From an uncultured Spirochaetota bacterium (lineage in GTDB: Bacteria; Spirochaetota; Brevinematia; Brevinematales; JAOACQ01): a DNA stretch of 64,000 bases. The DNA is taken from positions 928,001 through 992,000 of the forward strand of contig CAVYGN010000001.1 of assembly GCA_963768055.1 (NCBI GenBank), read 5' to 3'. The notes beneath the pieces were generated by a model. That model saw only the letters and a list, made by a program, of their open reading frames with translations, was not told where the DNA came from and did not search any database. The translations under genes and the position numbers were made by a program. Shown here one piece after another: positions 29,525 through 51,105 of this stretch (position 1 is its first letter; each line of letters opens with the position of its first letter).

Positions 29525-29670
29525 CAATGGGTTAATGAGTCGGCATTCAAAATCCGGTTTGACACGATGTTATAGTCCTGTTATAATTGTTACGGCCTTT
29601 GAAAGCGACAAAAAAGATGAGCCATTCGGGAAATATCGTTTAAGATATAAAAATTTCCAGGAGGCTATCA

Positions 29671-30372
29671 GTGAAAAAAACCGTTTTGTTACTTTGTTTG
29701 TTCGCTCTTCTTATTCCGGGAGCCCTTTTCGGCGCGTCTGTTGAAGGAAAAATACTGGATAAAGTTCCGGCCGAACCAGCAAATCTCGCCGACACAAATC
29801 TGCTCGTCCCAAAGCTGAAAGTTTTTAAAAGTGAAATTTCTAAAGCTTATTCGAACTGTGAAGCAGTAATCGAGAAATACTCAACCGCCCCACCGACCAT
29901 GAATATAGATGATTTAAAGTCTATGCAGGAAATCCAGAAGGTCACAATGTCAATAAATGATGATTATGGTACAGCCAGGGAAAAAATCAGCGGTGAAATT
30001 AACGGCATTACCGATGACCGCCAGGCAAAACTCAATGCAATCGACGAAAAATACCATCAACAGATTTCAGATCTTAGTGGTACCGCAAATGACCAGAAGG
30101 CTAAAGACTTGAACGCAAAAAGGATTGCCGAGATCGATGCGCAAAACCAGAAATCATGGGCCGATTTGATCACAAAACTCGCTGATTACAAGAAATTACT
30201 CAGCGATATGATCGCCGCAAACAGTGCTGTCGTCGCCAAGGCCCTCGCTAAAAAAAGCGGAACGATACAGACCCAGGGTACCCAGCTCCGGTTTCAGTTA
30301 TTGAAAGCGATTGATCAATATTGTGATACAATAGCTGACCTTGCCGGTATTAAACTGGACGACGATAATTAG
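29671..30372 (+). CDS. Secreted coiled-coil hypothetical protein
   Basis: GTG start after GGAGG, signal peptide, helical K/D/A-rich body. Confidence 0.7.
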   Translation: MKKTVLLLCLFALLIPGALFGASVEGKILDKVPAEPANLADTNLLVPKLKVFKSEISKAYSNCEAVIEKYSTAPPTMNIDDLKSMQEIQKVTMSINDDYGTAREKISGEINGITDDRQAKLNAIDEKYHQQISDLSGTANDQKAKDLNAKRIAEIDAQNQKSWADLITKLADYKKLLSDMIAANSAVVAKALAKKSGTIQTQGTQLRFQLLKAIDQYCDTIADLAGIKLDDDN

Positions 30373-30692: not shown

Positions 30693-31586
30693 ATGAGAAC
30701 TATGTTTTTATCAGTTCTTTTAATTATTCCTGCAATTTTATCGGCTTTCGAACATCCGAAACAAATCGGCATTGCTTATATTTACAGCGACAAGGTAAAT
30801 GTCAGAGAAAATCCCGGCTTATCAGGAAAGGTAATTACCAACATAAGCGCCGGAACCGAAATTGAAATACTATCAAAATGCGATAATTTCGACAGAATCG
30901 ACCAATCTATTGTCCTGGACGCTTATTTTACTAACGGCAACGGAACCATTAAAAAAGCGCCGGTTTATACCAATTCTTTTGTCGATTACTGGTATAAAAT
31001 TAAAATAAATGATTTAACCGGGTTTGTCTGGGGAGGATTCATAGCGAACAATTATTTAGCAATAGATAAAAATAGTATGAATTTTCTTGTCCTGATAAGA
31101 AATTTCAGCGAGCATGTTTCTTATTCTTATCATATCGATCAAACCAAATTTCATAACCGGGGCGATAACAAAGATGCACTTTCATGCAAATTTATTGAAA
31201 ACAATAAAATAATTTTTGAAAAAAAAGACTTATATGCTATGGGAGAAGCCCGTTTTAAAAATATTACATATGAAGAATACGAGGGCTTTGACGATCCGGT
31301 CTTCCTGTTGAAAATCGATTATGAAGATATATCCGAATACGGAGAAGGATCTGGAGAAAGATTCTATTTATTGAGCGCAAATTCAATCGATCAGGAAATT
31401 GACGCCTGGGCCGGAGGGGAAGGCGGTTCCAGAAACGAGTATAAAATAATATATCCTACAAATCCTAAAGGGAAGCATAATGAGATTATAGTTGAATATA
31501 CTTTCTATGATGAGCAAAATAACAAATCGTCTTCAGCAGTAGAATATATATGGGATTCAAAAAATAAGAAATTCTTTAAAAAATAA
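30693..31586 (+). CDS. Secreted SH3b-domain protein
   Basis: Signal peptide; VNVRENPGLSGKVI...WYKIKINDLTGFVWG. Confidence 0.75.
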   Translation: MRTMFLSVLLIIPAILSAFEHPKQIGIAYIYSDKVNVRENPGLSGKVITNISAGTEIEILSKCDNFDRIDQSIVLDAYFTNGNGTIKKAPVYTNSFVDYWYKIKINDLTGFVWGGFIANNYLAIDKNSMNFLVLIRNFSEHVSYSYHIDQTKFHNRGDNKDALSCKFIENNKIIFEKKDLYAMGEARFKNITYEEYEGFDDPVFLLKIDYEDISEYGEGSGERFYLLSANSIDQEIDAWAGGEGGSRNEYKIIYPTNPKGKHNEIIVEYTFYDEQNNKSSSAVEYIWDSKNKKFFKK

Positions 31587-31642
31587 ATGGGTAACTATCC
31601 GCGAAGGAGGGCCGCTAGATGGAAGCAGATGTGATGACGACT

Positions 31643-32845
31643 CTAATGATTTAATGATTTTAACCATCTATCAATTAGATTAAACACTTCATTATTACTA
31701 TCGTAAACTTTATTAAAATGTTCTCTTGATTTGTCAAATGCCTCTTTTGCTTCATCTTTTTTATTCAATTTTACATAATAAATCCCTTTATACAAAAATA
31801 GATTTCCGGACGCTTCATCATTACTTGAAAATTTGATTATCATATTCGAATAAAATTTGTCCAGATCATCATATCTTTTGAATTGTATATAATCGCTATT
31901 TATCAGACTTAGCAACTCGGGAAAATCATACATATTGCCAAATGCTTCTTCACAAATTAAATAAGCTTTATCAAATTCGTTTTGTTTTAAATAAATAATA
32001 ATTTTTCCGTTGTAGCTTAAAAAATCTTTAGGGTCTTGTTTTATCGCTTGATCGATATCTTTTAATAAATTTTCATATTCATTCAAATTAATATATGCAT
32101 TTGCCGCCAGAATAGCGGCATCTTTTTTATAATAAAAATCCTGATATAATTCAAAAGAATTTCTTGAATATATAATAACATTATTAAAATTTTTTATCTG
32201 ATAATATGCATACGCCAAATTATAATTAGCATCAGCATTTTTTTTATTCATTTCTACTGTATTTGATAAATATTGTATAGCTTTTTGAAAATTGTTATTT
32301 AATAAATATGTCATGCCTATGTAAAACGAAGATATATCATCAAATTTCTTTAAATCTTCGGCTTTTAGCAAATTTTCCCGGGATAAATTGATAAGCTCCT
32401 CATCATTTTTAAGCCATTGTTTGTAATATTTTGAATGCACTTCATAATAATAGCACCCCAATGAATAATATAAATCAGCATTATCCGGATATTTTTTAAT
32501 TAAATTTGATAATATATCTTCAACTTTTAAAGGGTACAAAACAGAAGAACCGCTTGACATCCTTATTTTATATAAATCATCATCCGGCCCTAAGTTGCTG
32601 AAAGAAAACAATTCATGCATTATACTTTTTGAAAAATACTTAAGAGCAATATCAACTTTTTTCACCACAATTACCGGATTTTCATTATTCGGATCTTTTT
32701 CTTTTAAAATTTCAAATGCGGATTGATATTGTCTGTTTGAAATCAATTGATCTGCATCAGAAATAATGCTTTTTACATTTTCTTCACAGAATAAAGATGA
32801 AATGAGGATTAAATTAAACGAAACTATCATTAAAATTTTATTCAT
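31643..32845 (-). CDS. Secreted/lipoprotein TPR protein, AT-rich
   Basis: Signal peptide ending SSLFC, TPR repeats; visibly more AT-rich than flanks. Confidence 0.75.
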   Translation of the reverse strand: MNKILMIVSFNLILISSLFCEENVKSIISDADQLISNRQYQSAFEILKEKDPNNENPVIVVKKVDIALKYFSKSIMHELFSFSNLGPDDDLYKIRMSSGSSVLYPLKVEDILSNLIKKYPDNADLYYSLGCYYYEVHSKYYKQWLKNDEELINLSRENLLKAEDLKKFDDISSFYIGMTYLLNNNFQKAIQYLSNTVEMNKKNADANYNLAYAYYQIKNFNNVIIYSRNSFELYQDFYYKKDAAILAANAYINLNEYENLLKDIDQAIKQDPKDFLSYNGKIIIYLKQNEFDKAYLICEEAFGNMYDFPELLSLINSDYIQFKRYDDLDKFYSNMIIKFSSNDEASGNLFLYKGIYYVKLNKKDEAKEAFDKSREHFNKVYDSNNEVFNLIDRWLKSLNH

Positions 32846-33109
32846 ATTTTTCTCCGATTAGTTGTATATTATTTGTTAATCTCCTCCAGCATTCCATCCA
32901 TCGATTCCTTTTAAATTCTTATGACTCATTATACATCTAACAATTTTTTCGGGCAAGGCATTGTGATTTTATCATTATTGAAATAATAGATTTTAAGGTG
33001 TTTAAGGGGAGGACCGATCGCGAAGGAAATCTGCAGATGACCCAGATTGCACAGATGAGCGGGGGGCCAAACATAGTTTATCAAAAAACCGTTTGCAAGG
33101 GAACAAAAG

Positions 33110-36573: not shown

Positions 36574-38913
36574 TTGAGGATTTTTTATCATGATATCTGC
36601 CTTATGATTATCGATAAAATAAGGATATTCCTTTCCGGACGCGTTATTCCACTGCTTAATATTAAAAACCTCCCATATTTTTTTGCAGGCCTGGCGGCGC
36701 TTGCAGCGGTTTATTTAATTATGCCGTATCCCGATTCCTACCTTACGGGTTTTAACCGCTCCATAAGAATACTGGATAGGAATGAAGAATTGCTCCTCGA
36801 ATTAACCCCGTACCAATCGGGATTTATGACTTATACCGGACTTGATAAGATATCGCCCGGTTTCCTGGACCTGCTTCTTTATTCCGAAGACAGGAAGTAT
36901 TATCAGCATATTGGAATAAGGCCGCTTTCAATGGCCCGTGCAATGGCAGGCAACATAAAAAACTGGAGGTTTGTTTCAGGCGGTTCGACTATCACCCAGC
37001 AATTGGTTAAGATCCGCTGTGGCATTAAACGCAATAACTGGCTGACCAAATTTCTTGAAATATTCAGGGCTTTAAGGCTAAATATCCATTTTTCGAAACG
37101 GGATATCCTCGAATCCTATATTAACCAGGTTTTTATGGGAAATCATACATACGGGGTCGGTGAGGCGGCGAGAGTGTATTTTAACAAGGAAGCGTACAAT
37201 TTATCCCTGCTTGAATCGGCCGCTTTAATTTGCGTTATAAGAGAACCCAATCACCTTGATTTAAGGAAAAATATGTTCGAAGCCCAGGCAAAAGCCCTGG
37301 AATTGCTCGAAAATGCGAAGAAGGACAATATAATTTCCTTAGAAGATTTGAATGCCGCGAAAAGTTCCAGGCTGAATGTTCATTACGAGCATCAAAATCA
37401 ATATGCCCCGCATTTTGCATTGTGGGCGCTGGAAGAAGCCCGGAAACTGGTCCCGGAACAAGAAAATATCAAGGAAGTTATCACAACACTGGATTTAAAA
37501 TTATACCTGGACCTTGTCGAAATCTGTAAGAACCGCATCCGGCTTATGAAGAAAAACAACGCTCATGACCTTGGATTGGTATGCATTGACAATCAGTCTA
37601 TGGAAGTATTAGCCATGGTGGGTTCCCTGGATTATTACAGCGAAGGCGGTATGATTAACGCGGCGCTGATCAAAAGACAGGCCGCATCTACCATGAAGGC
37701 CTTTACATATGCACTGGCACTGGATTCCGGGCAGTTTACCGCTTCCACCGTTTTGCCCGATATATATACGGAATTCCCCTCAGTGATAGGGAAATACATA
37801 CCAAGAAATTATAATTCGCTGTTCCATGGGCCTGTCCGCCTTTCGGTTGCGTTCGGAAGTTCATATAATGTCCCTGCTGTTTATACCTTGAATAAAATCG
37901 GCCTGCATGCATATTATAATTTTCTTAAGAAGGTCGGGTTCGATTCCATTGAAAAACCGGCCGATTATTACGGACTCGGCCTGACACTCGGGAATGCCGA
38001 TGTCACGCTCCTTGAACTGGTAAGGGCCTACAGCATATTTCCGAATTCCGGAAAATACGGCAATATTACAGGATTGAGATTTGTCAGGACGGCAAAGGGT
38101 AAAGTTTATAAACCGGTTAAAAAAATTATAGTCAATGTAATACAGCCTGAAACAGCTTTTTTAATAAGCCACATCCTTTCTGATTATAAATATAAAGCCC
38201 CGGGGTTCGGCGCTAATTCTCCAATACATTTTCCGTTTCCCCTGGCGGTTAAAACCGGAACTTCAAAGGATTTCAGAGATAATTTTATCGTCGCTTTCGA
38301 TAAAAACATCACTCTTGGAATATGGAATGGGAATCTTACGGGAGAGCCGATGAGAAATCTCCCGACCGCTGTCGGAGGAGGCATAATTTTGCGGGATATA
38401 GCCATATACCTGTCGAACCATGGGCATTCTTTCAGCCAGGCAGTTCCTGACGGATTGAATATAGTTCAGGAGAGGATTTGCAAACTTTCAGGAATGCTTG
38501 CCGGGCCGGAATGCGACTCAGATTATGAATATTTCATCAAAGGCACGGAGCCGAAGGATAACTGCGACTGGCATCACAGCCGGACAGTCGAGTTCCCCGA
38601 TGAATATATGAAATGGGCTTCGGAAAATTATATCGACAAAGTCCGGATTAAGCCTGCCGATGACCTCCGGATAATATACCCGGTCGACGGCGATATATTT
38701 CAAATAAGCGCTGAAATACCCGATCGGTCTCAGCAGATAACATTTAAGGCAAATTCGAAATATCCTGATGTGGTATGGTTTATTAACGGCAGGAAGATCG
38801 CCGGGGGTAAAAATGCGTTGTGGCAGCTTCAGCCGGGCGAGTTCCAGGTTGAAGCCTGCGCAGATTCGGGGAATGTTTCAAACAGTATAAAAATAATCGT
38901 AGTGAAAGAATAA
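36574..38913 (+). CDS. pbpC: Penicillin-binding protein 1C
   Basis: TG motifs EDRKYYQH and GGSTITQQL; TP motifs STMK, SYN and KTGTS; C-terminal BiPBP_C-like region; adjacent to A2M; start uncertain. Confidence 0.88.
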   Translation: MRIFYHDICLMIIDKIRIFLSGRVIPLLNIKNLPYFFAGLAALAAVYLIMPYPDSYLTGFNRSIRILDRNEELLLELTPYQSGFMTYTGLDKISPGFLDLLLYSEDRKYYQHIGIRPLSMARAMAGNIKNWRFVSGGSTITQQLVKIRCGIKRNNWLTKFLEIFRALRLNIHFSKRDILESYINQVFMGNHTYGVGEAARVYFNKEAYNLSLLESAALICVIREPNHLDLRKNMFEAQAKALELLENAKKDNIISLEDLNAAKSSRLNVHYEHQNQYAPHFALWALEEARKLVPEQENIKEVITTLDLKLYLDLVEICKNRIRLMKKNNAHDLGLVCIDNQSMEVLAMVGSLDYYSEGGMINAALIKRQAASTMKAFTYALALDSGQFTASTVLPDIYTEFPSVIGKYIPRNYNSLFHGPVRLSVAFGSSYNVPAVYTLNKIGLHAYYNFLKKVGFDSIEKPADYYGLGLTLGNADVTLLELVRAYSIFPNSGKYGNITGLRFVRTAKGKVYKPVKKIIVNVIQPETAFLISHILSDYKYKAPGFGANSPIHFPFPLAVKTGTSKDFRDNFIVAFDKNITLGIWNGNLTGEPMRNLPTAVGGGIILRDIAIYLSNHGHSFSQAVPDGLNIVQERICKLSGMLAGPECDSDYEYFIKGTEPKDNCDWHHSRTVEFPDEYMKWASENYIDKVRIKPADDLRIIYPVDGDIFQISAEIPDRSQQITFKANSKYPDVVWFINGRKIAGGKNALWQLQPGEFQVEACADSGNVSNSIKIIVVKE

Positions 38914-38927
38914 ACGGGGAGGTTCAA

Positions 38928-41900
38928 ATGTTTATTTTTAAACGGGCCCTTATTTTTTCTCTGGCAGCTTTGGTGTTCTCTTCCATATATCCTCTCGAAA
39001 AGGTAAAAGTAATTTATTTGCAGAAACTGGACAGCGGAAGCGACTTTTCCGAGGGAGGATTTTACAGGAGAGGCAATCTATATGGGGAAGGCGGGCAGCT
39101 TACCATTTCTTTTGATAAGCCCGTATTTAAATTATCGGACATTGACGCTATGAAAAGTGAAATACAGAAAAAAATCAAGCTCAAAATTACCCCTGAAATT
39201 AAAGGCGAATTCAGGCCTATAGGAACCCAGCAGGCGGCTTTTGTATTCAGGCAAAAACTGAAACCCTCTACCCGGTATGTGGTTGAAATTAACGTGGAGG
39301 AAATAAAATCGATCGACGGCGGGAATGTGACCGTTTTAATTAATCATATAAAGCTTGAGAACGGTCAGTTTGAATTCATGACTGAAAAATTGAGGGTTCT
39401 TAATTTACGGACTGGGGAAAATCTTGACGATCCGATATTTGTATTTTTTAGCTGGCCCGTCGATCCCAATAATTTGAAAAAAGAATTAAAAATAACGGAA
39501 GGATCAGTTTTAAATATCGAATATTCCATATTCTCCGTCATAAACACAAACTATATAGAAAGCAACGGGTTAACCTACGGTTACATCTATAAAAACCCGA
39601 GGGCTTTTGAAATATTGACTGCAAAGAGGAAACCCGGAAGTCAGTATTCCATAAGTATAAGCCAGGACCTGCATCCAATAGACGGGGAACTTGGTATGGA
39701 TAGGGAGTATGAATATTCTTTTAATACTTATAGTCCCCTGAAATACATTGACATTTCAACTGGCGAGTATGATTTTATCAACCAGTCGAAAACTTTCCAC
39801 CAGGATTCTGAAATCTATTTCCGTTTCAACAACGAACTGGACCAGCGGGTAAATTTAAAAAATTCAATAACCGTCGACCCGCCTGTCAAACATTTGAATT
39901 ACCAATATAGCGGCAAATCTATAATTGTTACTGCAGATTTTACAGGGGGGCAGAACTATCATATAAAAATCATCCCTCAGGTCAAGGATAAGTACGGCCA
40001 GCTAATCAACGGACCTGTCGAAGCGGATATTCCAATTGAGCATTCTTATTCTATTCTTGGAATACCTACCGGGTACATGGTGATGGAAAATTATATCCCT
40101 ATGATCCTGCCTTTGAAAATCCGGAATATCGATAAAGTGGATTTTTATTATACAATATGCCGGACCAAGGAAGATATTGTTAATTATATCAGCCGGCCTC
40201 CAAGTGAAGATGAATTCATGAAAAGCGCCAAATTGAAACAAATTAAGGTTAAGGAGACATGGGATGTATTTTTCAATTACCGCCTGGACCTTGCCCGTTT
40301 AATACCGGTTAAACCGCCTTTTATGGTGTATATGGCAGAGGCGGATAAAAAAGTCAGCGAGAATAACCAGGACAGGATAAAACGTGCGGGCATAATCCTT
40401 TTTACCGATATGGGTTTGACAGTAAAGAGCGGCCCGTACCAGACTTTAGTATATTTGCGAAGCTTGAAAAGCAACCAGCCTGTATCCGGTGCGAATGTCT
40501 ATGAAATCCTGTTCGACAAGCAGAACAACCCCGATATCAAGTTAAAAGGTAGAACCGATTCAAAGGGGGTCTGCACCTTCCAGGGCGAATTCCCCATGCC
40601 CTTTATTATGGTTGAAAAAGACAATAAGTACTGCATAAATTATGGCAATAATAAGTATTCCAACGATTATGAATATTATGACAACAGTGATTACGGCATG
40701 GATTATAATTCGCTGTTTTATAATAAAATATCCCAAAAAAGCATCATCAACAGCGGCGATTACCGTTCATACAATATGCAAAACGCTATGATATTCACCG
40801 ACCGTTTCCTTTACAAACCGGGTGAAACGATAAATGTTAAGGGAATCATACGTTACCGGTGGGAAGACAGGTGGAATACAACCGAACAGGAAGGCTCTTC
40901 ACAACCGATCGAATTTAAAGTTTACAACAGCCGTGATGAAGAAATCACGAATACGGCCGTACAGCCGGATGCATGGGGATCTTTCCATTTCAAGATTAAT
41001 TTGAAAGATTCCGATCCGACAGGTTATTACAGGATCAGTTCCACCAATTATATCGAGTGCAGTTTCAGTGTCCAGGATTTCAAACCGGCAAAAGCCGAGA
41101 TGAGGATCATTCCAAAGAAAACCGAATATGCCTGGGGGGATAATTTTGAAGCGGACCTTATTCCCTGGTACCTTTTCGGCGCGCCTGTTATCAAACCCGT
41201 TGTGTATGATGTAAGCGTCCAGCCGATAGAATTTATAAGTTCAAAATATCCGGATTATCAGTTTTCAAGGCCTGCTGAAGACCAGGGCCAGGAACGCCGC
41301 GATTACAGTTTTACCCTGATGTCAGGCACGGATTTGCCCGACAGCTCCGGGAAGTTGTCGATAACCAAACTTATTAAAAACGATATATTTTTCGGTGATG
41401 CAGGCATTATCATATCGGCTAATACGGAACTTGACGATAAATCCAGGATTTACGGGAACAGGGCCGACATTACAGTCTTTAATCCGGTCCATGTCGGCAT
41501 CAGGGTTAATCCTTATTTTGTCAATGCCAATAAAGAATTTAAAATAGATCTTATTGCAGTCGACAACAATGATAATCCTGTAAAAAACCAGGATGTCAAA
41601 ATGGAAATTGACAAGGTAGATTGGAAATCCTACCAGAAGGTGGGCGTCAACGGCAGGCTGGAATGGTATTCCGAGAATACTAAAACCAGGGTAAAAAGCG
41701 CCGACCTGCAGATTGGGAAAGAAGAGTATCCGCTGACCATCAATGAACCGGGATTTTATGAAGTAAAAGTAACATCAAAAATCCGCAGTCATGATATGGT
41801 AAGCCATGGTTCTTTTTACGTGTTGGGACCGGGCTGGGTAGGCTGGTCTATGGATAACAGTTATACTATAAGCCTTGACAGCGATAAAAAGGCGTACAGG

Positions 41901-44660
41901 GTCGGTGATACGGCGTATGTCCTTGTTAAAAATCCCTTCAAATCCGCACATGCCTTGATAACGATGGAGAGGGAAAAGATTTATGAAATCAGACAGGAAG
42001 AAATCACCGACAGCATGGCGATGATCCCTATAAGGATCACAAAAGAAAATATACCGAATATATATGTTTCAGTTATGCTCTTTTCAGGAAGGACCGGGAC
42101 CAACCAGGTTAAAAATGATACGGATTTAGCAAAACCAAGCTACCGCATCGGATATATCGATCTTCCTGTTTATACTGCAGAAAAAAGCCTCAATATTAAA
42201 ATAATCCCGGACAGAGACAATTTCAAGCCGGGAGAAAATGCCGGGATATCTTTCGAAGTAAAAGATTATAAAGGGAATTTAGTACCGGAGGCTGAACTGA
42301 CTATATCTGTTGCCGATAAAGGCGTTTTAAACCTTGTCAATTATAAATTGCCCAACCCCCTGGATAACTTCTACGGCCCGAGAAGGCTTTCTGTTTTTAC
42401 CAGCGAAATGAGGGAATGGATATACGGGCAGCGCTATCTTGCCGAGAAAGGTGAAGTTGTAGGCGGGGATGGTTTCAAGGACGAAAACCTCGGAATGGGA
42501 ATGATAGTGCCCAGGATGAATTTTAAATATACGGCCTTTTATACTAATAAAATCGTTGTCACCGGCGGAAAGACAAACATTGATTTCACCCTTCCGGACA
42601 ATCTGACAACCTGGAAGATAATGGTCGTATCCCAGACCAAGGACTCAAGTTTCGGGTACGGGGAGTCACAGTTCAGTGTAAAGAGGCCCCTGATGATTTT
42701 GTCGACGCTGCCGAGGATGGTCAGGAATCTTGATTATATTGAAGCTGGAGTGATGATCTTTAATTATACTGAAAAAGGGGGGTATGTTACAGTTGCAATA
42801 AGCTGCGACCAGCCGATGAAATTTTTGTTCCCTTTATTGACAAATGTTTACATTGATAAAAATAAGTCGAAAGAAGTCAAGTTCGCTTTTAACGTCCCTG
42901 CAATTCAGGCGGAGGAAGCTAAATTTACCATTTCAGGAAAAGTCAACGGAGCTTCCGACGGAGTTAAGGAAACAGTCTGGATAAGAAATCCCATGATCCT
43001 TGAAACAACGGCGCTTTATGAGAAAACCACAAACAAGGCTGATGAAAAAATATCTATTACCAGCAATGTGATTCCGGAGTTAAGCAGGGTCGAGTTTAAT
43101 CTTTCGCAGACTGCTTTTAATGAACTTTCAGGATGCCTTGATTACCTGGTCGAGTATCCTTACGGCTGCCTTGAACAGAAATCGTCAAGCATTTTACCAT
43201 TGATTCTCGGAGAGGATGTAATTCTTAAGTATGATTTGCTTAAAAATAAAACCGGCAGGGATTTAAGGCAAGTCGTTCAAACGATTTTAGAAGAAATGCC
43301 GAAATACCTGGGGGACGATGGTTTTAAATATTGGACGGACAGCATCAATTCAACCAATCCCTACCTCACTGTTTACGCCGGTTTTGTCCTCTGTATGGCA
43401 AGGTACCATAAATATTCAATACCCGAAGATTTTTATAACAGGGTCCGGGACCTTGTGAAAGATTATGCCGACGGCAGCGGCAAATATGAAAGCTGGTTCG
43501 AAATTTCACCTTATTATCGCGCGCTTGTAAAAAATTACGCATTATTTGTCGCGTCCATGAACGGTTATGAAAATGTCGGGTCGATAAAAAACGCTTACGC
43601 AGAACTGAAGGATAAGCTTAAGGATAACCTGTCCGCGCAGGCATACCTGTTAATAGCAGTGAGTAAATATAAAAATTTCGACGGTAAAGACATTATTATT
43701 AAGGATATATCGGATAGATTGCTGGCCTCGGCCCAGCTTGACACATCTACATGCTATTTTGCCGGATTTGAAAATTGGGACTGGTTTTATTATAACAGGA
43801 CTATTTCGACGGCGATTGTTTTACAGGCCCTGCTGGAAGCCGGGATCAATTTTAAAGATAGTCACAAAGTAATAAGATGGCTGACCCTGGCGCGCAAGCA
43901 GGGGCGATGGGCCACGACGCATGAGAATGCCATGGTTTTCTGGGCATACAATACATACCTCGGGCAGTTTGAAAAAGAAGAACCGAATTTTGAAGCTACC
44001 GGCGATATAAATAAAAAAGAAGTAATCAAAACCCTGTTCGCTTCGAGGAATACACCTGTTTATACGACAAATTATTCCCTTACGGATGAAAAATCGCCAG
44101 AACTCGATATAGAGCTACGGAAAAACGGAACCGGGATCCTTTACTATAACATCCGTTACCAGTATGCCCCTGTCAATCCTGTTTATAAAAGGGAAATGGG
44201 TTTTAGCCTGGAAAAACAAGTCCTCGATTATGAAACCGGCAAAGAGATCACGGACAATAACTATATAAGGGGTAGGAGATATATAATTAAATTGAACGTA
44301 TTTTCTGAAAAAACGCGTAATTTTGTCGTCCTTGACGACCAGCTTCCCGCTGGTTTTGAACCAGTCAATCTTGAGTTTGCAACCGAGCAGGCTGAAACTG
44401 AAGGAACAAAATCCGCGGTTGAAGGCAATGACCGGGGAAACATGTGGTGGTGGGGAATTTTCAACCACCGTGAGCAGTACAGGGACCGGGTTATATTTAC
44501 GGCCGATTATTTAATGGCCGGGAAGCATGAATTGTCTTACGTTGTCCGGGCTGCTACAACCGGAAAATTCAGTCAGCCCCAATTAAAAGTGGAGGAAATG
44601 TACGATCCTGAAACTTTCGGATCGCTGTCGCAGCCGGGTATAACAGTTAAAGAAGAATGA
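38928..44660 (+). CDS. Bacterial alpha-2-macroglobulin with thioester motif
   Basis: 1910 aa; TDRFLYKPGE, LPDNLTTW, YPYGCLEQ and EEMYDPE motifs. Confidence 0.93.
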   Translation: MFIFKRALIFSLAALVFSSIYPLEKVKVIYLQKLDSGSDFSEGGFYRRGNLYGEGGQLTISFDKPVFKLSDIDAMKSEIQKKIKLKITPEIKGEFRPIGTQQAAFVFRQKLKPSTRYVVEINVEEIKSIDGGNVTVLINHIKLENGQFEFMTEKLRVLNLRTGENLDDPIFVFFSWPVDPNNLKKELKITEGSVLNIEYSIFSVINTNYIESNGLTYGYIYKNPRAFEILTAKRKPGSQYSISISQDLHPIDGELGMDREYEYSFNTYSPLKYIDISTGEYDFINQSKTFHQDSEIYFRFNNELDQRVNLKNSITVDPPVKHLNYQYSGKSIIVTADFTGGQNYHIKIIPQVKDKYGQLINGPVEADIPIEHSYSILGIPTGYMVMENYIPMILPLKIRNIDKVDFYYTICRTKEDIVNYISRPPSEDEFMKSAKLKQIKVKETWDVFFNYRLDLARLIPVKPPFMVYMAEADKKVSENNQDRIKRAGIILFTDMGLTVKSGPYQTLVYLRSLKSNQPVSGANVYEILFDKQNNPDIKLKGRTDSKGVCTFQGEFPMPFIMVEKDNKYCINYGNNKYSNDYEYYDNSDYGMDYNSLFYNKISQKSIINSGDYRSYNMQNAMIFTDRFLYKPGETINVKGIIRYRWEDRWNTTEQEGSSQPIEFKVYNSRDEEITNTAVQPDAWGSFHFKINLKDSDPTGYYRISSTNYIECSFSVQDFKPAKAEMRIIPKKTEYAWGDNFEADLIPWYLFGAPVIKPVVYDVSVQPIEFISSKYPDYQFSRPAEDQGQERRDYSFTLMSGTDLPDSSGKLSITKLIKNDIFFGDAGIIISANTELDDKSRIYGNRADITVFNPVHVGIRVNPYFVNANKEFKIDLIAVDNNDNPVKNQDVKMEIDKVDWKSYQKVGVNGRLEWYSENTKTRVKSADLQIGKEEYPLTINEPGFYEVKVTSKIRSHDMVSHGSFYVLGPGWVGWSMDNSYTISLDSDKKAYRVGDTAYVLVKNPFKSAHALITMEREKIYEIRQEEITDSMAMIPIRITKENIPNIYVSVMLFSGRTGTNQVKNDTDLAKPSYRIGYIDLPVYTAEKSLNIKIIPDRDNFKPGENAGISFEVKDYKGNLVPEAELTISVADKGVLNLVNYKLPNPLDNFYGPRRLSVFTSEMREWIYGQRYLAEKGEVVGGDGFKDENLGMGMIVPRMNFKYTAFYTNKIVVTGGKTNIDFTLPDNLTTWKIMVVSQTKDSSFGYGESQFSVKRPLMILSTLPRMVRNLDYIEAGVMIFNYTEKGGYVTVAISCDQPMKFLFPLLTNVYIDKNKSKEVKFAFNVPAIQAEEAKFTISGKVNGASDGVKETVWIRNPMILETTALYEKTTNKADEKISITSNVIPELSRVEFNLSQTAFNELSGCLDYLVEYPYGCLEQKSSSILPLILGEDVILKYDLLKNKTGRDLRQVVQTILEEMPKYLGDDGFKYWTDSINSTNPYLTVYAGFVLCMARYHKYSIPEDFYNRVRDLVKDYADGSGKYESWFEISPYYRALVKNYALFVASMNGYENVGSIKNAYAELKDKLKDNLSAQAYLLIAVSKYKNFDGKDIIIKDISDRLLASAQLDTSTCYFAGFENWDWFYYNRTISTAIVLQALLEAGINFKDSHKVIRWLTLARKQGRWATTHENAMVFWAYNTYLGQFEKEEPNFEATGDINKKEVIKTLFASRNTPVYTTNYSLTDEKSPELDIELRKNGTGILYYNIRYQYAPVNPVYKREMGFSLEKQVLDYETGKEITDNNYIRGRRYIIKLNVFSEKTRNFVVLDDQLPAGFEPVNLEFATEQAETEGTKSAVEGNDRGNMWWWGIFNHREQYRDRVIFTADYLMAGKHELSYVVRAATTGKFSQPQLKVEEMYDPETFGSLSQPGITVKEE

Positions 44661-44667
44661 CTGATAT

Positions 44668-44712
44668 GGTATCTGGGCGGTACCGGGATCGAACCAGTGC
44701 CTGCGGCCCTGC
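44668..44712 (-). repeat. tRNA-Val 3'-half copy (distal att-like site)
   Basis: GGTATCTGGGCGGTACCGGGATCGAACCAGTGCCTGCGGCCCTGC matches the tRNA-Val(GAC) 3' end with the variable loop replaced. Confidence 0.85.
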
Positions 44713-44827
44713 TTGTGAACTCGTTAGCTGTACTCCGGAAAAAATAAAGAAAATTCTAATGGACCATCAAGTGTTTTGCATATATATTTATTTCTCAATA
44801 TAATATTGGTCATAAGGCGGTGAAGCT

Positions 44828-45535
44828 GTGAAAAGAATATATTTCCCCATGTTAATCGCTCTTTGGGTTTTAATCGATTCCTGTTCCGGCTCTCCGGGTC
44901 CTTCTTCCGGCGGCTCCGGCAGCGGAGGTTCTCCAAGTTCTATAGTAATTTCCGCAAATGGAACGGGAAACAATGGCGGCTACTACTATTCATACTGGAG
45001 CAATGGCCAAGGGACGGTGAAAATGACTTTGGGCTCCGGCGGGGAGTACAGTGTTGACTGGCAAAATTGCGGGGATTTCACCTGCGGTAAAGGCTGGTCT
45101 ACCGGGAGTGCTCAGAGTATAACCTACAATGCCGCTGCCTGGTCGCCGTCCGGAAACGCTTATCTGGCTGTCTACGGTTGGACGACAAGCCCGCTAATAG
45201 AATATTACATTGTTGATAGCTGGGGCAGTTGGAGGCCTGCCTACGTTCATGTGGGAACAGTTGTTTCTGATGGGGGTACATACGATATATATACGAATGT
45301 GCAGGTAAACCAGCCTTCCATTGTCGGCAATGCGACTTTTACGCAGTGGTGGAGCGTCCGGCAGTCGGCGAGAACAACCGGGGGCGACAACACCATAACT
45401 ACTGCCAACCACTTTAACGCGTGGAAGAGCCTCGGAGCGACTCTGGGTACTTTCAATTACCAGATAGTGCTTGTAGAGGGATATGAAAGCAGCGGGTTTG
45501 CCGACATCACGGTAGGCGGCACCGGTACGAATTGA
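44828..45535 (+). CDS. GH11 endo-1,4-beta-xylanase, probable lipoprotein
   Basis: [26 protein letters not shown] (nucleophile), QWWSVR and EGYESSG (acid/base); Cys after hydrophobic leader, Gly/Ser linker. Confidence 0.93.
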
Positions 45536-45665
45536 CAATCGTAGCGTAAACGCCATCGGCACTGTCTATCATTTTAAATGGCTCGTTTGCCCTTGAAATA
45601 GTAAAAAATAAAACCTGCAGGTAAAGATAAAAGTCATATCATGTTCTTTGAGGTGAAGGGACTGA

Positions 45666-46370
45666 TCACATTCGGTGAGATTCAGTAATACGATCATTCC
45701 CGTCATTGACTTTTACGCCCATAATTAAAAGCCACAAAGTAAGTGAAAATTCCGCAATCGCACTAACCACCCAGCATGGGTAAGATATTACTTCGTAGCG
45801 CGGAAAAAGGAAAAACTGAAGAAACCATATAAGAACGGCAAAACAATCGATTATCAGCAATATGCCCAAAATTCCGGGAAGGAAGCCCGACTTGAAAACC
45901 AAATAACCGAGAGGAAAAAGCCAGGCGCCATAAAATATCTGGGCGATAATAAATCCATTTTTGTACAAATTAATAGATAACATCGCTTGCGCCTGTAACT
46001 GAGCTGCCTGGAATACCTTCAGGTAATCGGCGCCGTTTAAAAGCAGAAGACCAGCAAATAGATTAAGCATACTTAAACACTGTATTGCGACACCGACCAA
46101 GTTTAGCAAAACGAACAGTAAAGCGAGATTTTTATTAACAGATTTTAATAACACGTATAAAGCCCAGGCAGCCAAAAGGAAAAAAACAGCCGAGAGAAGA
46201 CCGGTTATAAAACCGATACGGAATAGCAATTCATGAGTCATTATGTTATTGACTACTATTGCGGCATCTCCAAATGAAAAGCGGCCGAATACATCTGCAA
46301 AGATCGAAGTAACAATGAACATAAGATAAAAGAACCCTGCGATTCTCGCGGTTTTTTTCTTAGAATTCAT
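45666..46370 (-). CDS. DUF4386-like membrane protein
   Basis: ARIAGFFYL start, IFYGAWLFPLGYLVFKSGFLP..LG, E...LWLLI.G pattern. Confidence 0.75.
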   Translation of the reverse strand: MNSKKKTARIAGFFYLMFIVTSIFADVFGRFSFGDAAIVVNNIMTHELLFRIGFITGLLSAVFFLLAAWALYVLLKSVNKNLALLFVLLNLVGVAIQCLSMLNLFAGLLLLNGADYLKVFQAAQLQAQAMLSINLYKNGFIIAQIFYGAWLFPLGYLVFKSGFLPGILGILLIIDCFAVLIWFLQFFLFPRYEVISYPCWVVSAIAEFSLTLWLLIMGVKVNDGNDRITESHRM

Positions 46371-46530
46371 TTTCTATCCTCCTTTTTTGATATAAACCGA
46401 GATTTCCCAAATGGCTCATCTTTTTTACCATTCTCGAAAGCTCTTTCAATTCCATAAAAATTATATAAAGACCAAAACATCATGTCAACCGGGCGAATTG
46501 CTTTATAATAAATCAAAATCGAAACGGAAG

Positions 46531-46806
46531 GATTATCATCGCATTATCATCAATGATGGAATCGACGGAGAAAAGACCTTTAATTGTCACACTTAATAAT
46601 CCGTGAAATCCTCCAAAATTATCCCGCAGTCAATGCTTGAGAAAAGTGACTATTGATATGATATTATGAAAAGTTACGATTTTACAGCTGCTGCAGCCCG
46701 GACAAATCAGTGTCAATCCGCGGAATCGGTGGTTTCAACCCCGGTGTTCCCGGGATATGTGGGCGGTACTGGGATCGAACCGGTGCCTGCGGCCCTGCGT
46801 GTCGAG
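46531..46806 (-). repeat. About 275-bp diverged duplicate of 50716-50989 containing the tRNA-Val 3' half
   Basis: Direct alignment by eye; 8 substitutions in the 102 bp shared with the other copies. Confidence 0.9.
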
Positions 46807-46857
46807 TTTCTTGCATCGGAAGCAATTAAATTGCCTTCGAAAAATACCTGAAAATAG

Positions 46858-46887
46858 TGGTACAATAATGGTACAAGTTTGGTACAA
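46858..46887 (+). repeat. TGGTACAA x3 direct repeat, 11-bp period (integrase arm-site-like)
   Basis: Copies at 46858, 46869 and 46880, about 50 bp from the tRNA fragment. Confidence 0.75.
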
Positions 46888-46994
46888 CTCGAAATTAATT
46901 ATAATCATGATAATTAATATTTTAAAAAATCAAACCTTATCAGCTTGTTTTATTTCATAGGTATAATTACAATAATTAATAAAAAAGGAAAATT

Positions 46995-47261
46995 ATGCCT
47001 ACAATATCGATGTTTTTTGGAATTATAATTCGCATGTATCTTGGTAAAAAGGAGCATAATCCGCCTCATTTTCATGCGTATTATCAGGAATTTAAAGGTA
47101 CATTTGATATAGAAAAATGTTCATTAATTGATGGAAATATCCCGGTTAAACAAAAAAAGTTAATAGAAGCCTGGGCTGAACTTCATAAAGAAGAACTTCT
47201 TGCAGACTGGAACTTAGCTGTCAATAACGAATTACCTTATAAAATAGAACCGCTTAAATAG
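46995..47261 (+). CDS. DUF4160-family protein (putative TA component)
   Basis: MPTISMFFGIIIRMY..EHNPPHFHA.Y...WAELHKEELLADW...IEPL. Confidence 0.88.
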   Translation: MPTISMFFGIIIRMYLGKKEHNPPHFHAYYQEFKGTFDIEKCSLIDGNIPVKQKKLIEAWAELHKEELLADWNLAVNNELPYKIEPLK

Positions 47262-47272
47262 AGGGGTGTAAT

Positions 47273-47527
47273 ATGTACATTGGGATAAAAGCAGTTCAAC
47301 CAGTTGAAAACCATCATTTGCTAATAACTTTTGATAATGGAGAAGAAAAGATTTTTGATATGAATGAATATCTGGATAAAGGAATATTTGCCGAATTAAA
47401 GAATGAAAATTTATTCAGAACAGTTCATGTTATTTTTGATACAATAGAATGGGAAAATGGAGCGGACTTAGACCCCGAATTAATTTATCAGGAAAGTAAG
47501 AAATTAGTAGATGCCTTGACTCAATAG
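47273..47527 (+). CDS. DUF2442-family protein (partner of DUF4160)
   Basis: LLITFDNGEEKIFD...TIEWENGADLDPELIY. Confidence 0.88.
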   Translation: MYIGIKAVQPVENHHLLITFDNGEEKIFDMNEYLDKGIFAELKNENLFRTVHVIFDTIEWENGADLDPELIYQESKKLVDALTQ

Positions 47528-47804
47528 TAATTCATTAATTACAGAAATTTAATTATTATCTGATCGCAAGCGATGATCTCCTGGCGAGTTACGCGCTTGT
47601 TGCGAAATTTCGCCTTGATGAACTGCGAGAACTCGGCTTTCAGGATGCCATATAAGACTTTGTACTTTTTATTCCCGGTAATTTATCACATATTACTTTT
47701 GCAACGCCGACTATTTGTTGAATTTCATCGAAATACTGATTCATGATTCTGACGCTTTTACCACAGAAATAACGACAGGAAAACCGAACCACGGTGAAAA
47801 GTGG

Positions 47805-47928
47805 ACCGCTGCTGCAGCCCGGGCAAATCTGTGTCAATCTGCGGAATCTGTGGTTTCAACCCCGGTGTTCCCGGGGTATCTGGGCGGTACTGGGATCGAA
47901 CCAGTGCCTGCGGCCCTGCGTGTCGAGC
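47805..47928 (-). repeat. tRNA-Val 3'-half copy plus downstream leader
   Basis: 47805-47906 is identical to 50871-50972 (102 bp), then the CCTGCGG variant and CCCTGCGTGTCGAGC. Confidence 0.92.
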
Positions 47929-48040
47929 TATCCGCCCCGGCTTTAATAAGCGGATTAGCGCACTCTTTATTGCCGTATTCCATGGCCCAGATAAAAGCGG
48001 TGTTTCCGTTAAAATCACTTGCATTTATATTACCGCCGCT
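47927..48040 (-). pseudogene. Ankyrin-repeat gene remnant
   Basis: Translates SGGNINASDFNGNTAFIWAMEYGNKECANPLIKAGADS, a canonical ankyrin repeat; no start codon; runs into the tRNA fragment. Confidence 0.7.
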
Positions 48041-48232
48041 TTTCAGATGCGAGCTTATAAAGTTGCTGTCATTGAGTCTTCGGTATTTCCGGTAGTGAAA
48101 ACTCCCGGTGATGCGGTCATTCCTTTCCAGATCCGGTTGATAAAAACCGCACCGATTAAGGCTTTCCCTCCAAAAGATTTTAGAGCATTTTACCCGGATG
48201 TGTTGGACGTCTCTTAGTGATAGTCTTCGTAA

Positions 48233-49570
48233 TCAATTGATGCTGACGGTTATATAAACGCTGCCTATACTTGCAGAACTAGAGCCCAATGGTTTTGCTA
48301 TAAAAATCAAAAAATCGTCTTTCTTCAATTTAACGGTTATGGATTGGTTTTTAGACTTTTTTTCAGCCATTTCAGGTGTAGATTCTCCCAAATCGTTGCC
48401 CAGTTGATAATCATAGAATATCGGGATATCCACATTCCAGAAAGCATTCCGATTGGTATAAACCAGGATTTTAGTCCGATAATTTTGTGCGCTGATGTCA
48501 TGGTATGCGCCTCTATTAAATTCAAATTTATAAATGCCGGCTACTTTTGCAATGTATTCTGTCCCTTTTTTATTGGCTGATAAAATCTCGATTTCTTCAT
48601 TTTGATTATTTTCCCCTTTCGCAGATACGGAGTTTTTAAAAACCACAGCCTTTGTCTGCCCTTCCGATATAGTTATATTAGTGAATGACAATGATTCATC
48701 TCCCTTCCTTAATTCTATCCTGTTCCCTTTTCCGGCTTCGATACCCGGGATTATAAGCTCGCCGGAATCGTCAGTTTTGCCGGTCTTTTTCCCGTTAAGA
48801 TAAACGTCGATGCCGCCCTCCATCGTCTCTACCATCAATTCCCCGGATGGGTTGTATACAAGCTCGTTCGTTTTTCCGCTCTCGATCTGCACTATCTTCC
48901 TGAGGGCTTCCACGTCTGAATTCTCCTGCTTCAGGCTTATATCGATAGATTGGCCGGCTATGAACTTGTCGAAGTAACCGTCCAGGCTGTCTACAGCCTT
49001 TACGAAGGAGTCGTTTATGAAAATCCTGTACTTTACGTTTTTCGGCTTTACTGCAAGCCTTAAATATCCGAGCGAAATGGCCTTTCCGACTAAAAGGCCG
49101 GAAACGTCGAGTATCATTTTATCGACGGTATCGAAAATTTCAAGGCCCGCGTCCCCCTTGTAAGTCCTTGTAAACAATACCTGGCCGTTGACAACGTTAT
49201 AAACGAAAACGTTTATTGTTATAATCCCTGTTTTGTCATTAAGTGTATAATCACCGGTGATAACCTGTTCAGTTGAAAAATGCTGGGCGATATTGATAGC
49301 CCTGCTTCCTTCAAGCTCCTTAAGGCTCCAGAAATTTGTGCCCCCTGCTATTTCTTCCACATCCTTATAAGGAGTAATGTTTTTAGATATCTTTGAGAGA
49401 AAGGTGGATAATGATTTTGTCATGAGTATGTTTATGTTGTCCTGGTTCGATTTTCCCCTGTTTATGAATCCGGCGACAGTCGCGGATTTCATCTCAAGCT
49501 GCTGGGGACGCATAAAACCGGCACATATGAATAGTATTATTAAGACGGTCAGTATCTTTTTAATTGCCAT
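48233..49570 (-). CDS. Secreted protein with TolB-N/CsgG-like N-domain and PEGA-like repeats
   Basis: Signal peptide; VITGDY...INVFVYNV..GQV; GELMVET..GIDVYLNGKKTGKT. Confidence 0.6.
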   Translation of the reverse strand: MAIKKILTVLIILFICAGFMRPQQLEMKSATVAGFINRGKSNQDNINILMTKSLSTFLSKISKNITPYKDVEEIAGGTNFWSLKELEGSRAINIAQHFSTEQVITGDYTLNDKTGIITINVFVYNVVNGQVLFTRTYKGDAGLEIFDTVDKMILDVSGLLVGKAISLGYLRLAVKPKNVKYRIFINDSFVKAVDSLDGYFDKFIAGQSIDISLKQENSDVEALRKIVQIESGKTNELVYNPSGELMVETMEGGIDVYLNGKKTGKTDDSGELIIPGIEAGKGNRIELRKGDESLSFTNITISEGQTKAVVFKNSVSAKGENNQNEEIEILSANKKGTEYIAKVAGIYKFEFNRGAYHDISAQNYRTKILVYTNRNAFWNVDIPIFYDYQLGNDLGESTPEMAEKKSKNQSITVKLKKDDFLIFIAKPLGSSSASIGSVYITVSIN

Positions 49571-49809
49571 AAACCCTTCTTTAAAATATTTTATTCAGGA
49601 TTTCTCATTTAGCATATTGTAATTCCAAAAATCCGAGTCCCAATGCATTTTACCAATATTTTATCAACCTTATCAGGGCATGTCAACATAATTTAAGTCT
49701 CTTTCCAGTCTAAGACGGACTGATAAACAGTAAAATTCATTCTTTTCATAAAATTCGACAACAGGTTACCCATTGTTTTTTTTATTACATTCAAATCCTT
49801 ACACAGCTT

Positions 49810-50640
49810 CCAATGCCAAATCCCGAAGCCGGTCTATCTTTTCGAGTATTACTTCAAACATTTTCTTCGGAACAGCAACTTCAGCCATCTGGAATTGTAT
49901 ACCGAGCATGGCTTATCACCTTTGCACCGATCTTGACCAGCTTATCACGGAGCGTTGTCAATGACCAATGCCGAATAGACATTTGCAAAGCAACTCGCCG
50001 AAGAAAGTTCCCAAGGTTATATGCAAGAGCGAACAACTGCAATCTCACCTGATTGTCAGCAAAGTCGTGGCATGACAGTTTCGTCCATTTGATAGCGTTC
50101 TCGCCTTGCTTGATCCACTGCTCCGCTGTTCCTCTCATGTTGAAGAACCTGACTACCTTTTTCAGCTGCCATCGGAGGTTGTTTACGATAAAGCCGACGC
50201 GAGGGAACAATTCTCAACGATGCCATTCAACCTTCGCGATCACACGGCGTCCATGTTCCCAGCTAACTGCCTTGTAGAAGAAGCAGGAAGCCGAATCGTG
50301 TAAAGAAAATCCTTTGATTCGAGGTATTCATAAATATCCGGATTCGCGAAAGCGGCATCACCCCTGAAGTAGCGATCCCGCTTCAAGGTCGCCGGACTGG
50401 TTGAAGCAGCCTTACATTCCATAGCACGACCGCCGACAACTCGCCGCATTGCCGGATCAATATACAACCTGTCGGCATTGTTTGTGTCTTCATATCCAGC
50501 AATCCTTGAGAAAACAGACTGTCGGAGTTGAGCCCCAAGGGAATGGCGTGTTTTTACCAGGGCGGCTATCAGAATGACAGCATTCTGAAATTTTTGTTAG
50601 TCCTAAAGCATAGTCAAGTTCTCGGTATGCAAGCAATTCA
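49810..50640 (-). mobile_element. Degraded IS1380-family transposase remnant
   Basis: Fragments in several frames: LLAYRELD.ALGLT, RQSVFSRIAGYED, FRGDAAFANPDIYEYLE, RGTAEQWIK, NQVRLQLFALAYNLGNFLR and QMAEVAVP; internal deletions and frameshifts. Confidence 0.85.
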
Positions 50641-50946
50641 TACCTCAAGCTTGGAAAAAGCATGCATCCCGGGTGAAATTCATCGAATATGTTTCATGGA
50701 GTTTTTCAATAACATGATTATCATCGCATTATCATCAATGATGGAATCGACGGAGAAAAGACCTTTAATTGTCACACTTAATAATCCGTGGAATCCTTTC
50801 AAAATTATCCTTCAGTCAATGCTTGAGAAAAGTGACTATTGATATGATATTGTGAAAAGTTACGATGATTACCGCTGCTGCAGCCCGGGCAAATCTGTGT
50901 CAATCTGCGGAATCTGTGGTTTCAACCCCGGTGTTCCCGGGGTATC

Positions 50947-51021
50947 TGGGCGGTACTGGGATCGAACCAGTGACCCCCTGCGTGTCGAGCAGGTACTCTG
51001 AACCAACTGAGCTAACCGCCC
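50947..51021 (-). tRNA. tRNA-Val(GAC)
   Basis: GGGCGGT-TA-GCTC..GAGT-A-CCTGC-TCGACAC-GCAGG-GGGTC-ACTGG-TTCGATC-CCAGT-ACCGCCC-A; full cloverleaf, CCA not encoded. Confidence 0.95.
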
Positions 51022-51031
51022 TTTATCATTG

Positions 51032-51105
51032 TGGTCGATGCCGGGCTCGAACCGGCGACCTCATGCATGTGAGGCATGCGCTCTAACCAGCTGAGCTAAT
51101 CGACC
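51032..51105 (-). tRNA. tRNA-Val(CAC)
   Basis: GGTCGAT..CATGC-CTCACAT-GCATG..GCCGG-TTCGAGC-CCGGC-ATCGACC-A; full cloverleaf. Confidence 0.95.

Follow-up and report, generated by a model that had tools for sequence, protein, structure and literature searches.

An array of three small blocks of DNA downstream of a tRNA-Val gene was analyzed, which is found in a stretch of 64,000 nucleotides (the window) on contig CAVYGN010000001.1 of an uncultured Spirochaetota bacterium of the class Brevinematia. It is read, with a probability of about two in three, as an accretion array of three islets of the type of cis-mobilizable elements (CIMEs), i.e., as blocks that are flanked by attachment (att) sites and devoid of an integrase, that entered the genome by serial site-specific integration, and that lost their recombination genes thereafter. 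The architecture as such is already known, and this locus adds an example of tRNA-anchored, CIME-like accretion, with a xylanase among the cargo, in a poorly sampled class of spirochaetes.

The anchor of the array is the intact tRNA-Val(GAC) gene at 50947-51021 on the minus strand, which was detected by ARAGORN and by Rfam (RF00005, 62 bits). A second gene, tRNA-Val(CAC) (51031-51105, minus strand, ARAGORN and Rfam), is located 9 nt upstream of it, has a normal variable region of 5 nt, and belongs to the context only. A repeat search, MAFFT alignments and pattern matches revealed three partial copies on the same strand as tRNA-Val(GAC) and downstream of the gene, i.e., at lower coordinates. 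The live gene was named site A, and the partial copies were named B, C and D with increasing distance. Copy B (47875-47927) forms the boundary between blocks 3 and 2, copy C (46754-46806) forms the boundary between blocks 2 and 1, and copy D (44668-44716) is the most distal one and lies 8 nt past the stop codon of an alpha-2-macroglobulin-like gene (38928-44660, plus strand). The start-to-start spacings of the four tRNA-like sites in the repeat search and the MAFFT alignment were 3066, 1121 and 2086 bp, and they define block 3 (47928-50940, 3.07 kb), block 2 (46807-47874, 1.12 kb) and block 1 (44717-46753, 2.09 kb). Three copies in the same orientation, delimiting blocks of about 3.1, 1.1 and 2.1 kb, had been proposed in an earlier note on this DNA (the original prediction), and ARAGORN, Rfam, the repeats and MAFFT all agreed with this layout.

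A 22-nt pattern of the acceptor stem and T-arm, allowing at most one mismatch, had four co-oriented matches in the 64 kb, one of them inside the intact tRNA gene, while none was expected from 100 shuffles. This stretch is what the att copies that bound each block have in common. A 28-nt pattern specific for the copies had three matches in the window versus none expected. No RNA family besides the two tRNAs was detected by Rfam between 44400 and 51300 at E<=1. As had been predicted, the similarity to the live gene decreased with the distance. At site A, positions 50872-50972 are identical to positions 47806-47906 at site B over 101 nt, copy C has 8 substitutions across these 101 positions, and copy D has retained only 49 nt, of which 32 could be aligned to the live gene.

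The position and the orientation of the sites are thus those expected for copies of the 3' half of the tRNA gene, as they had been described originally, but they are not plain copies of the 3' half of the present gene. Copy B consists of the tRNA trailer, the acceptor stem, the T-arm and a 21-nt tRNA-like core, in which the variable region is 4 nt longer. The variable region has a length of 9 nt in the copies, compared to 5 nt in the live tRNA-Val(GAC). B, C and D all read CCTGCGGCCCTGCGTGTCGAG where the live gene reads ACCCCCTGCGTGTCGAG, and the last bases are degenerate in D. On the plus strand, the gene has CCAGTG-ACC-CCCTGCGTGTCGAG, B and C have CCAGTG-CCTGCGG-CCCTGCGTGTCGAG, and D has a degenerate form of the latter. 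The junctions are tRNA-derived and show a 5-7-5 T-arm symmetry.

The second feature shared by the blocks is an arm that follows directly after the tRNA or tRNA-like 3' end. It is located at 50716-50946 in block 3, at 47805-47874 in block 2, where only the first approximately 70 nt past the tRNA-like end are in common, and at 46531-46753 in block 1, in all cases on the minus strand. The block 1 arm has the full form of 275 bp, with the tRNA-like end counted in. The similarity between A, B and C extends about 70 nt past the tRNA 3' end, and the similarity between A and C extends 225 nt, so that 46531-46806 and 50716-50989 are 92% identical over 278 nt. The arm common to all three blocks comprises 123 bp and the arm common to blocks 1 and 3 comprises 275 bp, i.e., these two blocks have 150 bp more in common (46531-46680 and 50716-50866). 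Site D does not have any part of the shared arm, which indicates that the arm was brought by the elements and is not chromosomal.

Several short repeats were found in the shared arm. It contains three CAGATT repeats that are 9-10 nt apart, two copies of ATTATCATC that are 11 nt apart, and another repeat of 13-17 nt with a distance of 27 nt. The 13-mer GATTCCRCRGATT occurs twice per 275-bp arm at a distance of about 118-119 nt, and five of its six matches in the window are in the arms (0.55 matches expected). In addition, a GC hairpin is present in the arm of block 3. By analogy, these phased short repeats appear to be of the kind seen in attP arms. The common arm with phased repeats argues for a single family of elements with a single integrase specificity as the source of the three blocks, and, as judged from the sites themselves, the blocks would have one att specificity in common. 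The 231-nt arm did not have a match in phage and plasmid collections (blastn), and a 21-nt stretch of the arm had no match in a genome contig collection, in which the window's own genome was not matched either. The tRNA-distal arms of the three blocks showed no similarity beyond the 21-nt core, and in none of 12 comparisons did the score exceed that of the best among 30 shuffles by more than 1 point. In block 2, both arms contain phased repeats. Its tRNA-distal arm contains three TGGTACAA repeats with a spacing of exactly 11 bp (46858-46887, plus strand), which are all three matches in the window and lie 110-135 nt upstream of a dhiT-like gene. Nothing similar was found in blocks 1 and 3. The triplet could serve as an arm-type site for a recombinase or as the operator of the toxin-antitoxin pair.

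From the repeats and their polarity, the shared arm with its motifs, the lack of a detectable integrase in the window, the cargo composition and the gene remnants, we infer the following history with regard to recombinase type, crossover position, arrival order and integrase loss. Each islet would have entered by site-specific recombination, most likely catalyzed by a tyrosine integrase, between the tRNA gene and the attP of an element carrying a tRNA-Val-like segment that began in the anticodon loop and extended 6 nt beyond the 3' end. Every new arrival would have integrated at the live gene, so that the blocks already present were moved further from it, and thus block 1 (44.7-46.8 kb) would have arrived first, followed by block 2 and block 3, and the original tRNA 3' end would have been displaced to its place next to the alpha-2-macroglobulin gene. 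If a tRNA-integrating element is written as P-O-P' and the gene as B-O-B', the stack should have the form gene 5' part-O-P'3 ... P3-O-P'2 ... P2-O-P'1 ... P1-O-B'. The shared arm was indeed found at the expected P' positions, and it is missing from site D, the place at which the model puts the original B'. Each block lies between two copies that would represent its attL and attR, a retention that is characteristic for CIMEs. The recombination module would have been lost, or it might be located elsewhere.

tRNA genes are used at different sublocations by integrating elements, for which a classification is reportedly found in Williams 2002. In the present case, the alignment suggests that the crossover was most likely in the T-loop or the T-stem, because the identity between A and B ends at CCAGTG, and beyond this point the copies agree with one another against the gene, with a cluster that is 4 nt longer. 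With a T-loop crossover, the 21-nt tRNA-like stretch past the crossover would be the P core of the element, copy D would be composed of the displaced original 3' end (about 44668-44690) and the degenerate core of block 1, and the 3' end and trailer of the live tRNA-Val(GAC) would have been supplied by the newest block. The same argument was used for Dehalococcoides, where a short motif that adjoins the repeat and does not match the gene places the insertion in the T-loop (PMC3146451), and the T-stem region and the anticodon loop are the two large classes of attP sites in the Islander collection (PMC4383910). With either crossover, the junctions would have the form that is expected for site-specific integration into a tRNA gene.

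The original prediction also stated that no integrase is encoded in the blocks or in the window, and this held within the open reading frames (ORFs) and frames that were scanned. No integrase or recombinase family was detected in 55 of the 56 non-overlapping window ORFs of at least 70 aa (the ORF 50865-51086 on the plus strand, which overlaps the tRNA genes, was left out of the search), and none was detected by Pfam at E<=1 in 29 of the 125 stop-to-stop frames of the region. A comparison of 10 proteins and frames with PHROGs did not reveal an integrase wreck. In these scans, none of the three blocks yielded an integrase gene, either complete or fragmentary.

The cargo of the three blocks was analyzed next to the att sites, and all families that had been named on the basis of the sequence were recovered, i.e., GH11, DUF4386, DUF4160, DUF2442, a PEGA-like protein, an ankyrin fragment and fragments of an insertion sequence (IS). 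Block 3, which adjoins the live gene, contains one intact gene between two gene fragments, which adjoin both ends of the block. At the tRNA-proximal end, a frameshifted and internally deleted remnant of an IS1380-family transposase gene was found (49884-50596, minus strand; Pfam DDE_Tnp_1_4, NCBIfam transpos_IS1380). It is broken into at least four out-of-frame pieces, which correspond to profile positions 52-102, about 215-250, 279-300 and 306-409, and by extrapolation it extends to about 40 nt from the shared arm. No convincing terminal inverted repeats were found for it. At the other end, a fragment of about 49 aa with ankyrin repeats (47930-48076, minus strand; Pfam Ank/Ank_2, E 3e-4) adjoins att copy B; it has no start codon, and the sequence upstream of it is junk. 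These broken genes are direct evidence that block 3 has undergone decay.

The intact gene of block 3 (48233-49570, minus strand) encodes a lipoprotein-like protein of 445 aa with weak PEGA/CsgG-like signals. Its composition is host-like, and a promoter-like site that matches the consensus at 11 of 12 positions lies at 49686-49658; here and below, promoter-like sites are consensus matches only. A search with the protein yielded 16 proteins including the query. A 1.89-Mb contig of a relative encodes four of them, and another one, with 53% identity, is encoded on the window's own 1.80-Mb contig. The protein is a member of a small family with several copies in this lineage. After the TGA stop codon of the gene (48233-48235), 132 in-frame codons remain open (47837-48232) and end inside the att copy, and protein-like sequence, namely the ankyrin repeat, is confined to the final 49 aa in front of the att core. 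The agreement of the frames is probably due to chance. The idea that the 445-aa ORF and the ankyrin stretch form one broken gene was rejected, as the 50 aa between them look non-coding, and it was also ruled out by homologues of comparable identity with lengths of 416-470 aa. PADLOC, applied to six cargo proteins, reported nothing but a weak hit of the ankyrin type.

Block 2 contains a dhiTA-like type II toxin-antitoxin pair as its only intact cargo (46995-47527, plus strand, Pfam). The DUF4160 toxin-like gene (46995-47261, plus strand, Pfam E 1e-23) comes first and is followed, after a gap of 11 nt, by the DUF2442 antitoxin-like gene (47273-47527, plus strand, Pfam E 3e-16). The pair of domains and the gene order are the same as in dhiTA of Dickeya, a DUF4160/DUF2442 pair that was validated as a toxin-antitoxin system (PMC8198452). 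The NCBIfam model toxin_DhiT gave 85 bits, which is below the cut-off of 100, and the toxin-like protein is therefore better regarded as a putative DhiT relative than as an equivalog. The pair is very AT-rich, with a GC content at third codon positions (GC3) of 0.247 compared to 0.467 +/- 0.066 for the 45 other genes of the window (z = -3.3). About 280 nt of block 2 have no assigned content. In its AT-rich, non-coding tail, 100 nt at 47561-47660 have a GC content of 49% and two opposite open frames, and they look like a gene fragment, although no informative match was obtained. The most promising frame without an assignment, 47 aa at 47542-47682 (minus strand), had one weak hit among 1.84 billion representatives (E 2e-5), which was made up of seven short stretches in a protein of 1760 aa and was uninformative.

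Block 1 contains two convergent genes, a GH11 endo-xylanase gene with a lipoprotein-like signal (44828-45535, plus strand, Pfam) and a gene for a DUF4386 membrane protein (45666-46370, minus strand, Pfam). Compared to the 45 other window genes, both have an atypical codon usage (z about -2.7), and the GH11 gene is GC-rich (GC z = +2.4). A promoter-like site with 12 of 12 consensus positions precedes the DUF4386 gene (46488-46460), while the site of the GH11 gene has 10 of 12. Among the best 120 of 4614 hits for GH11, the closest match other than the protein itself was 69% identical, the named relatives were mostly from fungi, Streptomyces and other actinomycetes, and haloarchaea, and there was one spirochaete entry with 52%; none of these 120 was on the three large contigs that encode the 87%-identical EF-G or the lipoprotein relatives. 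The GH11 protein is listed on two contigs, and EF-G and the 445-aa lipoprotein of the window are listed on one contig each. The identical xylanase on the second contig could represent a second assembly or a second location.

An upstream region of about 110 nt of the DUF4386 gene (46383-46492, minus strand) was also found at 29554-29653 (plus strand) with 71% identity. It precedes a 233-aa ORF without a family (29671-30372), which is unrelated to DUF4386. The common region includes the consensus promoter and an exactly conserved box, AAAAAAGATGAGCCATTYGGGAAAT, the second copy of which is located at 29610-29634. Both matches of the box in the window are in these two upstream regions, and none was expected. 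The box and its surroundings may be a shared operator or leader, and the similarity suggests that the block 1 gene has become part of a regulon of the host, or else that the two genes are both acquisitions.

The composition of the cargo differs from block to block, with a GC3 z of -3.3 for the dhiTA-like pair, a GC z of +2.4 for GH11, and host-like values for the lipoprotein gene. The serial part of the proposed history is supported by this heterogeneity together with the oriented end fragments, the shared arm that adjoins them and the identity that falls with distance. In the course of decay, selection would have kept the toxin-antitoxin pair, which resists deletion, the enzyme with the membrane protein, and the surface lipoprotein.

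Tandem blocks without an integrase but with att flanks have been described at tRNA and tmRNA genes as CIMEs or degenerate elements (PMC5704250, PMC3146451, bioRxiv 10.1101/2020.12.28.424599). The streptococcal CIMEs related to ICESt1 and ICESt3 likewise have flanks of the attL/attR type, lack integration and transfer genes, and are arranged in tandem at the target gene; their accretion takes place at the 3' end of tRNA or protein genes (PMC5704250). In contrast to these CIMEs, all three blocks here lack an integrase and the window does not contain a functional partner for them, their sizes of 1.1-3.1 kb are far below those of the streptococcal elements, the host belongs to the Brevinematia, and a descent from integrative and conjugative or integrative and mobilizable elements is only a possibility (PMC5704250). 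The tandem islands at ssrA of Dehalococcoides resemble the present locus in that the 3' end of a tRNA-like gene is directly repeated many times downstream of the gene, and 15 of the islands have no integration module and were suggested to be CIMEs. They differ in that they use the serine recombinase DsiB, a 20-bp repeat and a tmRNA target, whereas the shared arm has 123-275 bp here (PMC3146451). In the tycheposon islands of Prochlorococcus, integration also takes place at the proximal tRNA, a partial tRNA copy is left between neighbours, newcomers displace older elements inward, and degenerate remnants and additional partial tRNAs build up. However, tycheposons are defined by their own tRNA-specific tyrosine recombinase and replication modules, neither of which was found in the blocks, and the Prochlorococcus remnants include fragmented integrases, while not even a fragment was found here (bioRxiv 10.1101/2020.12.28.424599). 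Last, Islander identifies islands by an intact tRNA gene (tDNA) with a co-oriented 3' end fragment downstream, which is also present here, and their attP carries a tDNA fragment, as is proposed for the three blocks. It also requires a tyrosine integrase in each island, which is missing in all three blocks, and a size of 2-200 kb, for which block 2 with 1121 bp is too short, in contrast to blocks 1 and 3 with 2086 and 3066 bp. Among 3919 Islander islands, 125 tandem arrays had at least two members, and four had at least three (PMC4383910).

Several points weigh against decay from complete elements. The main weakness is that no trace of an integrase was found in any of the three blocks, and their past autonomy is assumed. 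Blocks 1 and 2 are compact, and block 1 does not contain any gene wreck. The block 2 and block 3 arms do not differ, despite the badly decayed IS in block 3, and this would be easier to understand if block 3 had moved after the decay. In addition, a related locus, which could have provided an empty site or a full-length relative, was not found; a search with the C-terminal 700 aa of the alpha-2-macroglobulin-like protein gave 23 pattern matches, none of which was confirmed. Finally, the crossover position is unproven. A crossover in the anticodon loop, combined with an odd native tRNA, is possible, since ARAGORN called a tRNA-Val in all seven script-made chimeras, including those with the variable region of 9 nt.

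Some of these points would be explained if the blocks had never had an integrase and were minimal, non-autonomous cassettes that were captured and reshuffled in trans at tRNA-Val, in analogy to an integron. The unit would consist of the cargo and an att module of about 180-330 bp, and the integrase would be encoded elsewhere in the genome or on a helper. The lack of an integrase trace in three of three blocks, their size of just 1.1-3.1 kb, the identity of the block 2 and block 3 arms over 101 nt in spite of the old, broken IS, and the phased repeats on both arms of block 2 all fit this view, as does the location of the conserved part on one side of the crossover, like attC in a cassette. Mobilization of integrase-less, att-flanked elements in cis and in trans has been documented for CIMEs; the known route to such blocks, however, is the decay of integrase-bearing elements (PMC5704250). 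No integrase is known for such a mechanism, gene fragments adjoin both ends of block 3, the tRNA-distal arms have only 21 nt in common, the cargo has its own promoter-like sites and a mixed orientation, and the att module does not have an attC-like fold (z -1.0 to +1.3). Therefore, an origin as minimal cassettes is regarded as unlikely, although the identical arms, the compactness of blocks 1 and 2 and the repeats on two arms slightly favour mobilization in trans. Should trans mobilization turn out to be true, this array would lend itself as an uncomplicated natural model in which the capture of genes at a tRNA gene can be studied.

The comparison with an integron deserves a closer look, because the original prediction combined serial, tRNA-proximal insertion leaving att duplicates, which is supported, with an integron-like function, which is not. 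The likeness consists of a polarized array of small units with the newest one beside the anchor, a recombination sequence that is mostly one-sided, and a toxin-antitoxin unit inside the array. Neither intI nor attI nor Pc was found beside the array, there is no detectable integrase in the 64 kb, and the anchor side is occupied by the two tRNA genes and genes for a PilZ protein and a histidine kinase. An attC-like single-strand fold was not detected on either strand of the three att modules (z -1.03 to +1.34, 200 shuffles each), in which only the T-arm hairpin and a small GC hairpin recurred. The cargo genes are on both strands, promoter-like sites with 10-12 of 12 positions precede the DUF4386, lipoprotein and GH11 genes, and the site of recombination is a tRNA gene. 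Thus, all integron features that were tested fail, i.e., intI/attI/Pc, the attC fold, a single orientation and promoterless cassettes. A live pool of integrase-less mini-cassettes of 1-3 kb, which are captured, excised and reordered by a tRNA-Val-specific tyrosine integrase encoded elsewhere in the genome or on a helper element, is considered even less probable than the general model of trans mobilization. The att module of such a platform would be asymmetric and would be composed of the 21-nt tRNA-like core, the T-arm and the repeat arm of 123-275 bp. If it exists, it would be a tRNA-anchored, integron-like capture platform that is discarded by the integrase and size filters of standard finders.

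It was also considered that the array was acquired or rebuilt as one piece, either as a composite element from a donor array or by gene conversion, in which case the gradient of identity would be uninformative on the order of arrival. Transfer of composite tandems of CIMEs and integrative and conjugative elements is documented (PMC5704250), and conversion between neighbouring repeats could be the reason why the two arms closest to the tRNA gene are perfectly identical. This is quite improbable, as the distal copy has no shared arm and is next to a chromosomal gene, which is what an original attB-derived end should look like, and the three cargo compositions fit separate origins, though not necessarily separate arrivals. 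An origin without site-specific recombination, by local segmental duplication of the 3' region of the tRNA gene or through an error of the assembly, can hardly be believed. Nothing specific speaks in favour of it, the copies are not alike (one has 8 substitutions and another is truncated), unique and unrelated sequence lies between them, and all of them end at the same tRNA sublocation with a core that is not in the gene and that a chromosomal duplication would not create.

With serial integration followed by loss of the recombination genes as the preferred explanation, tRNA-anchored accretion is documented for the Brevinematia, a class known mostly from metagenome bins. It offers a concrete route by which the GH11 xylanase could have entered this genome, and it would show what survives the decay of islands, namely a toxin-antitoxin pair, an enzyme and a surface lipoprotein. 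Small islets without an integrase escape the integrase and 2-kb filters of island finders (PMC4383910), and they are thus probably under-counted.

The rest of the window is ordinary chromosome and encodes, among others, LptFG, PFK, EF-G, FtsW, a pair of PBP1C and alpha-2-macroglobulin, and a che operon. The best relative of the window's EF-G is 89% identical, and the nearest named ones, from Brevinematia/Brevinematales bins, have identities of 70-76%. At 36574-44660, i.e., up to the distal end of the array, a gene for a penicillin-binding protein of the PBP1C type is directly followed by the gene for the bacterial alpha-2-macroglobulin of 1910 aa, and the combination of these two is a known paired gene arrangement. 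At 31000-33000 the GC content drops sharply to 0.26-0.31, compared to a window mean of 0.42. This stretch covers the gene for a 400-aa TPR protein (31643-32845, minus strand), and it may be another acquired segment.

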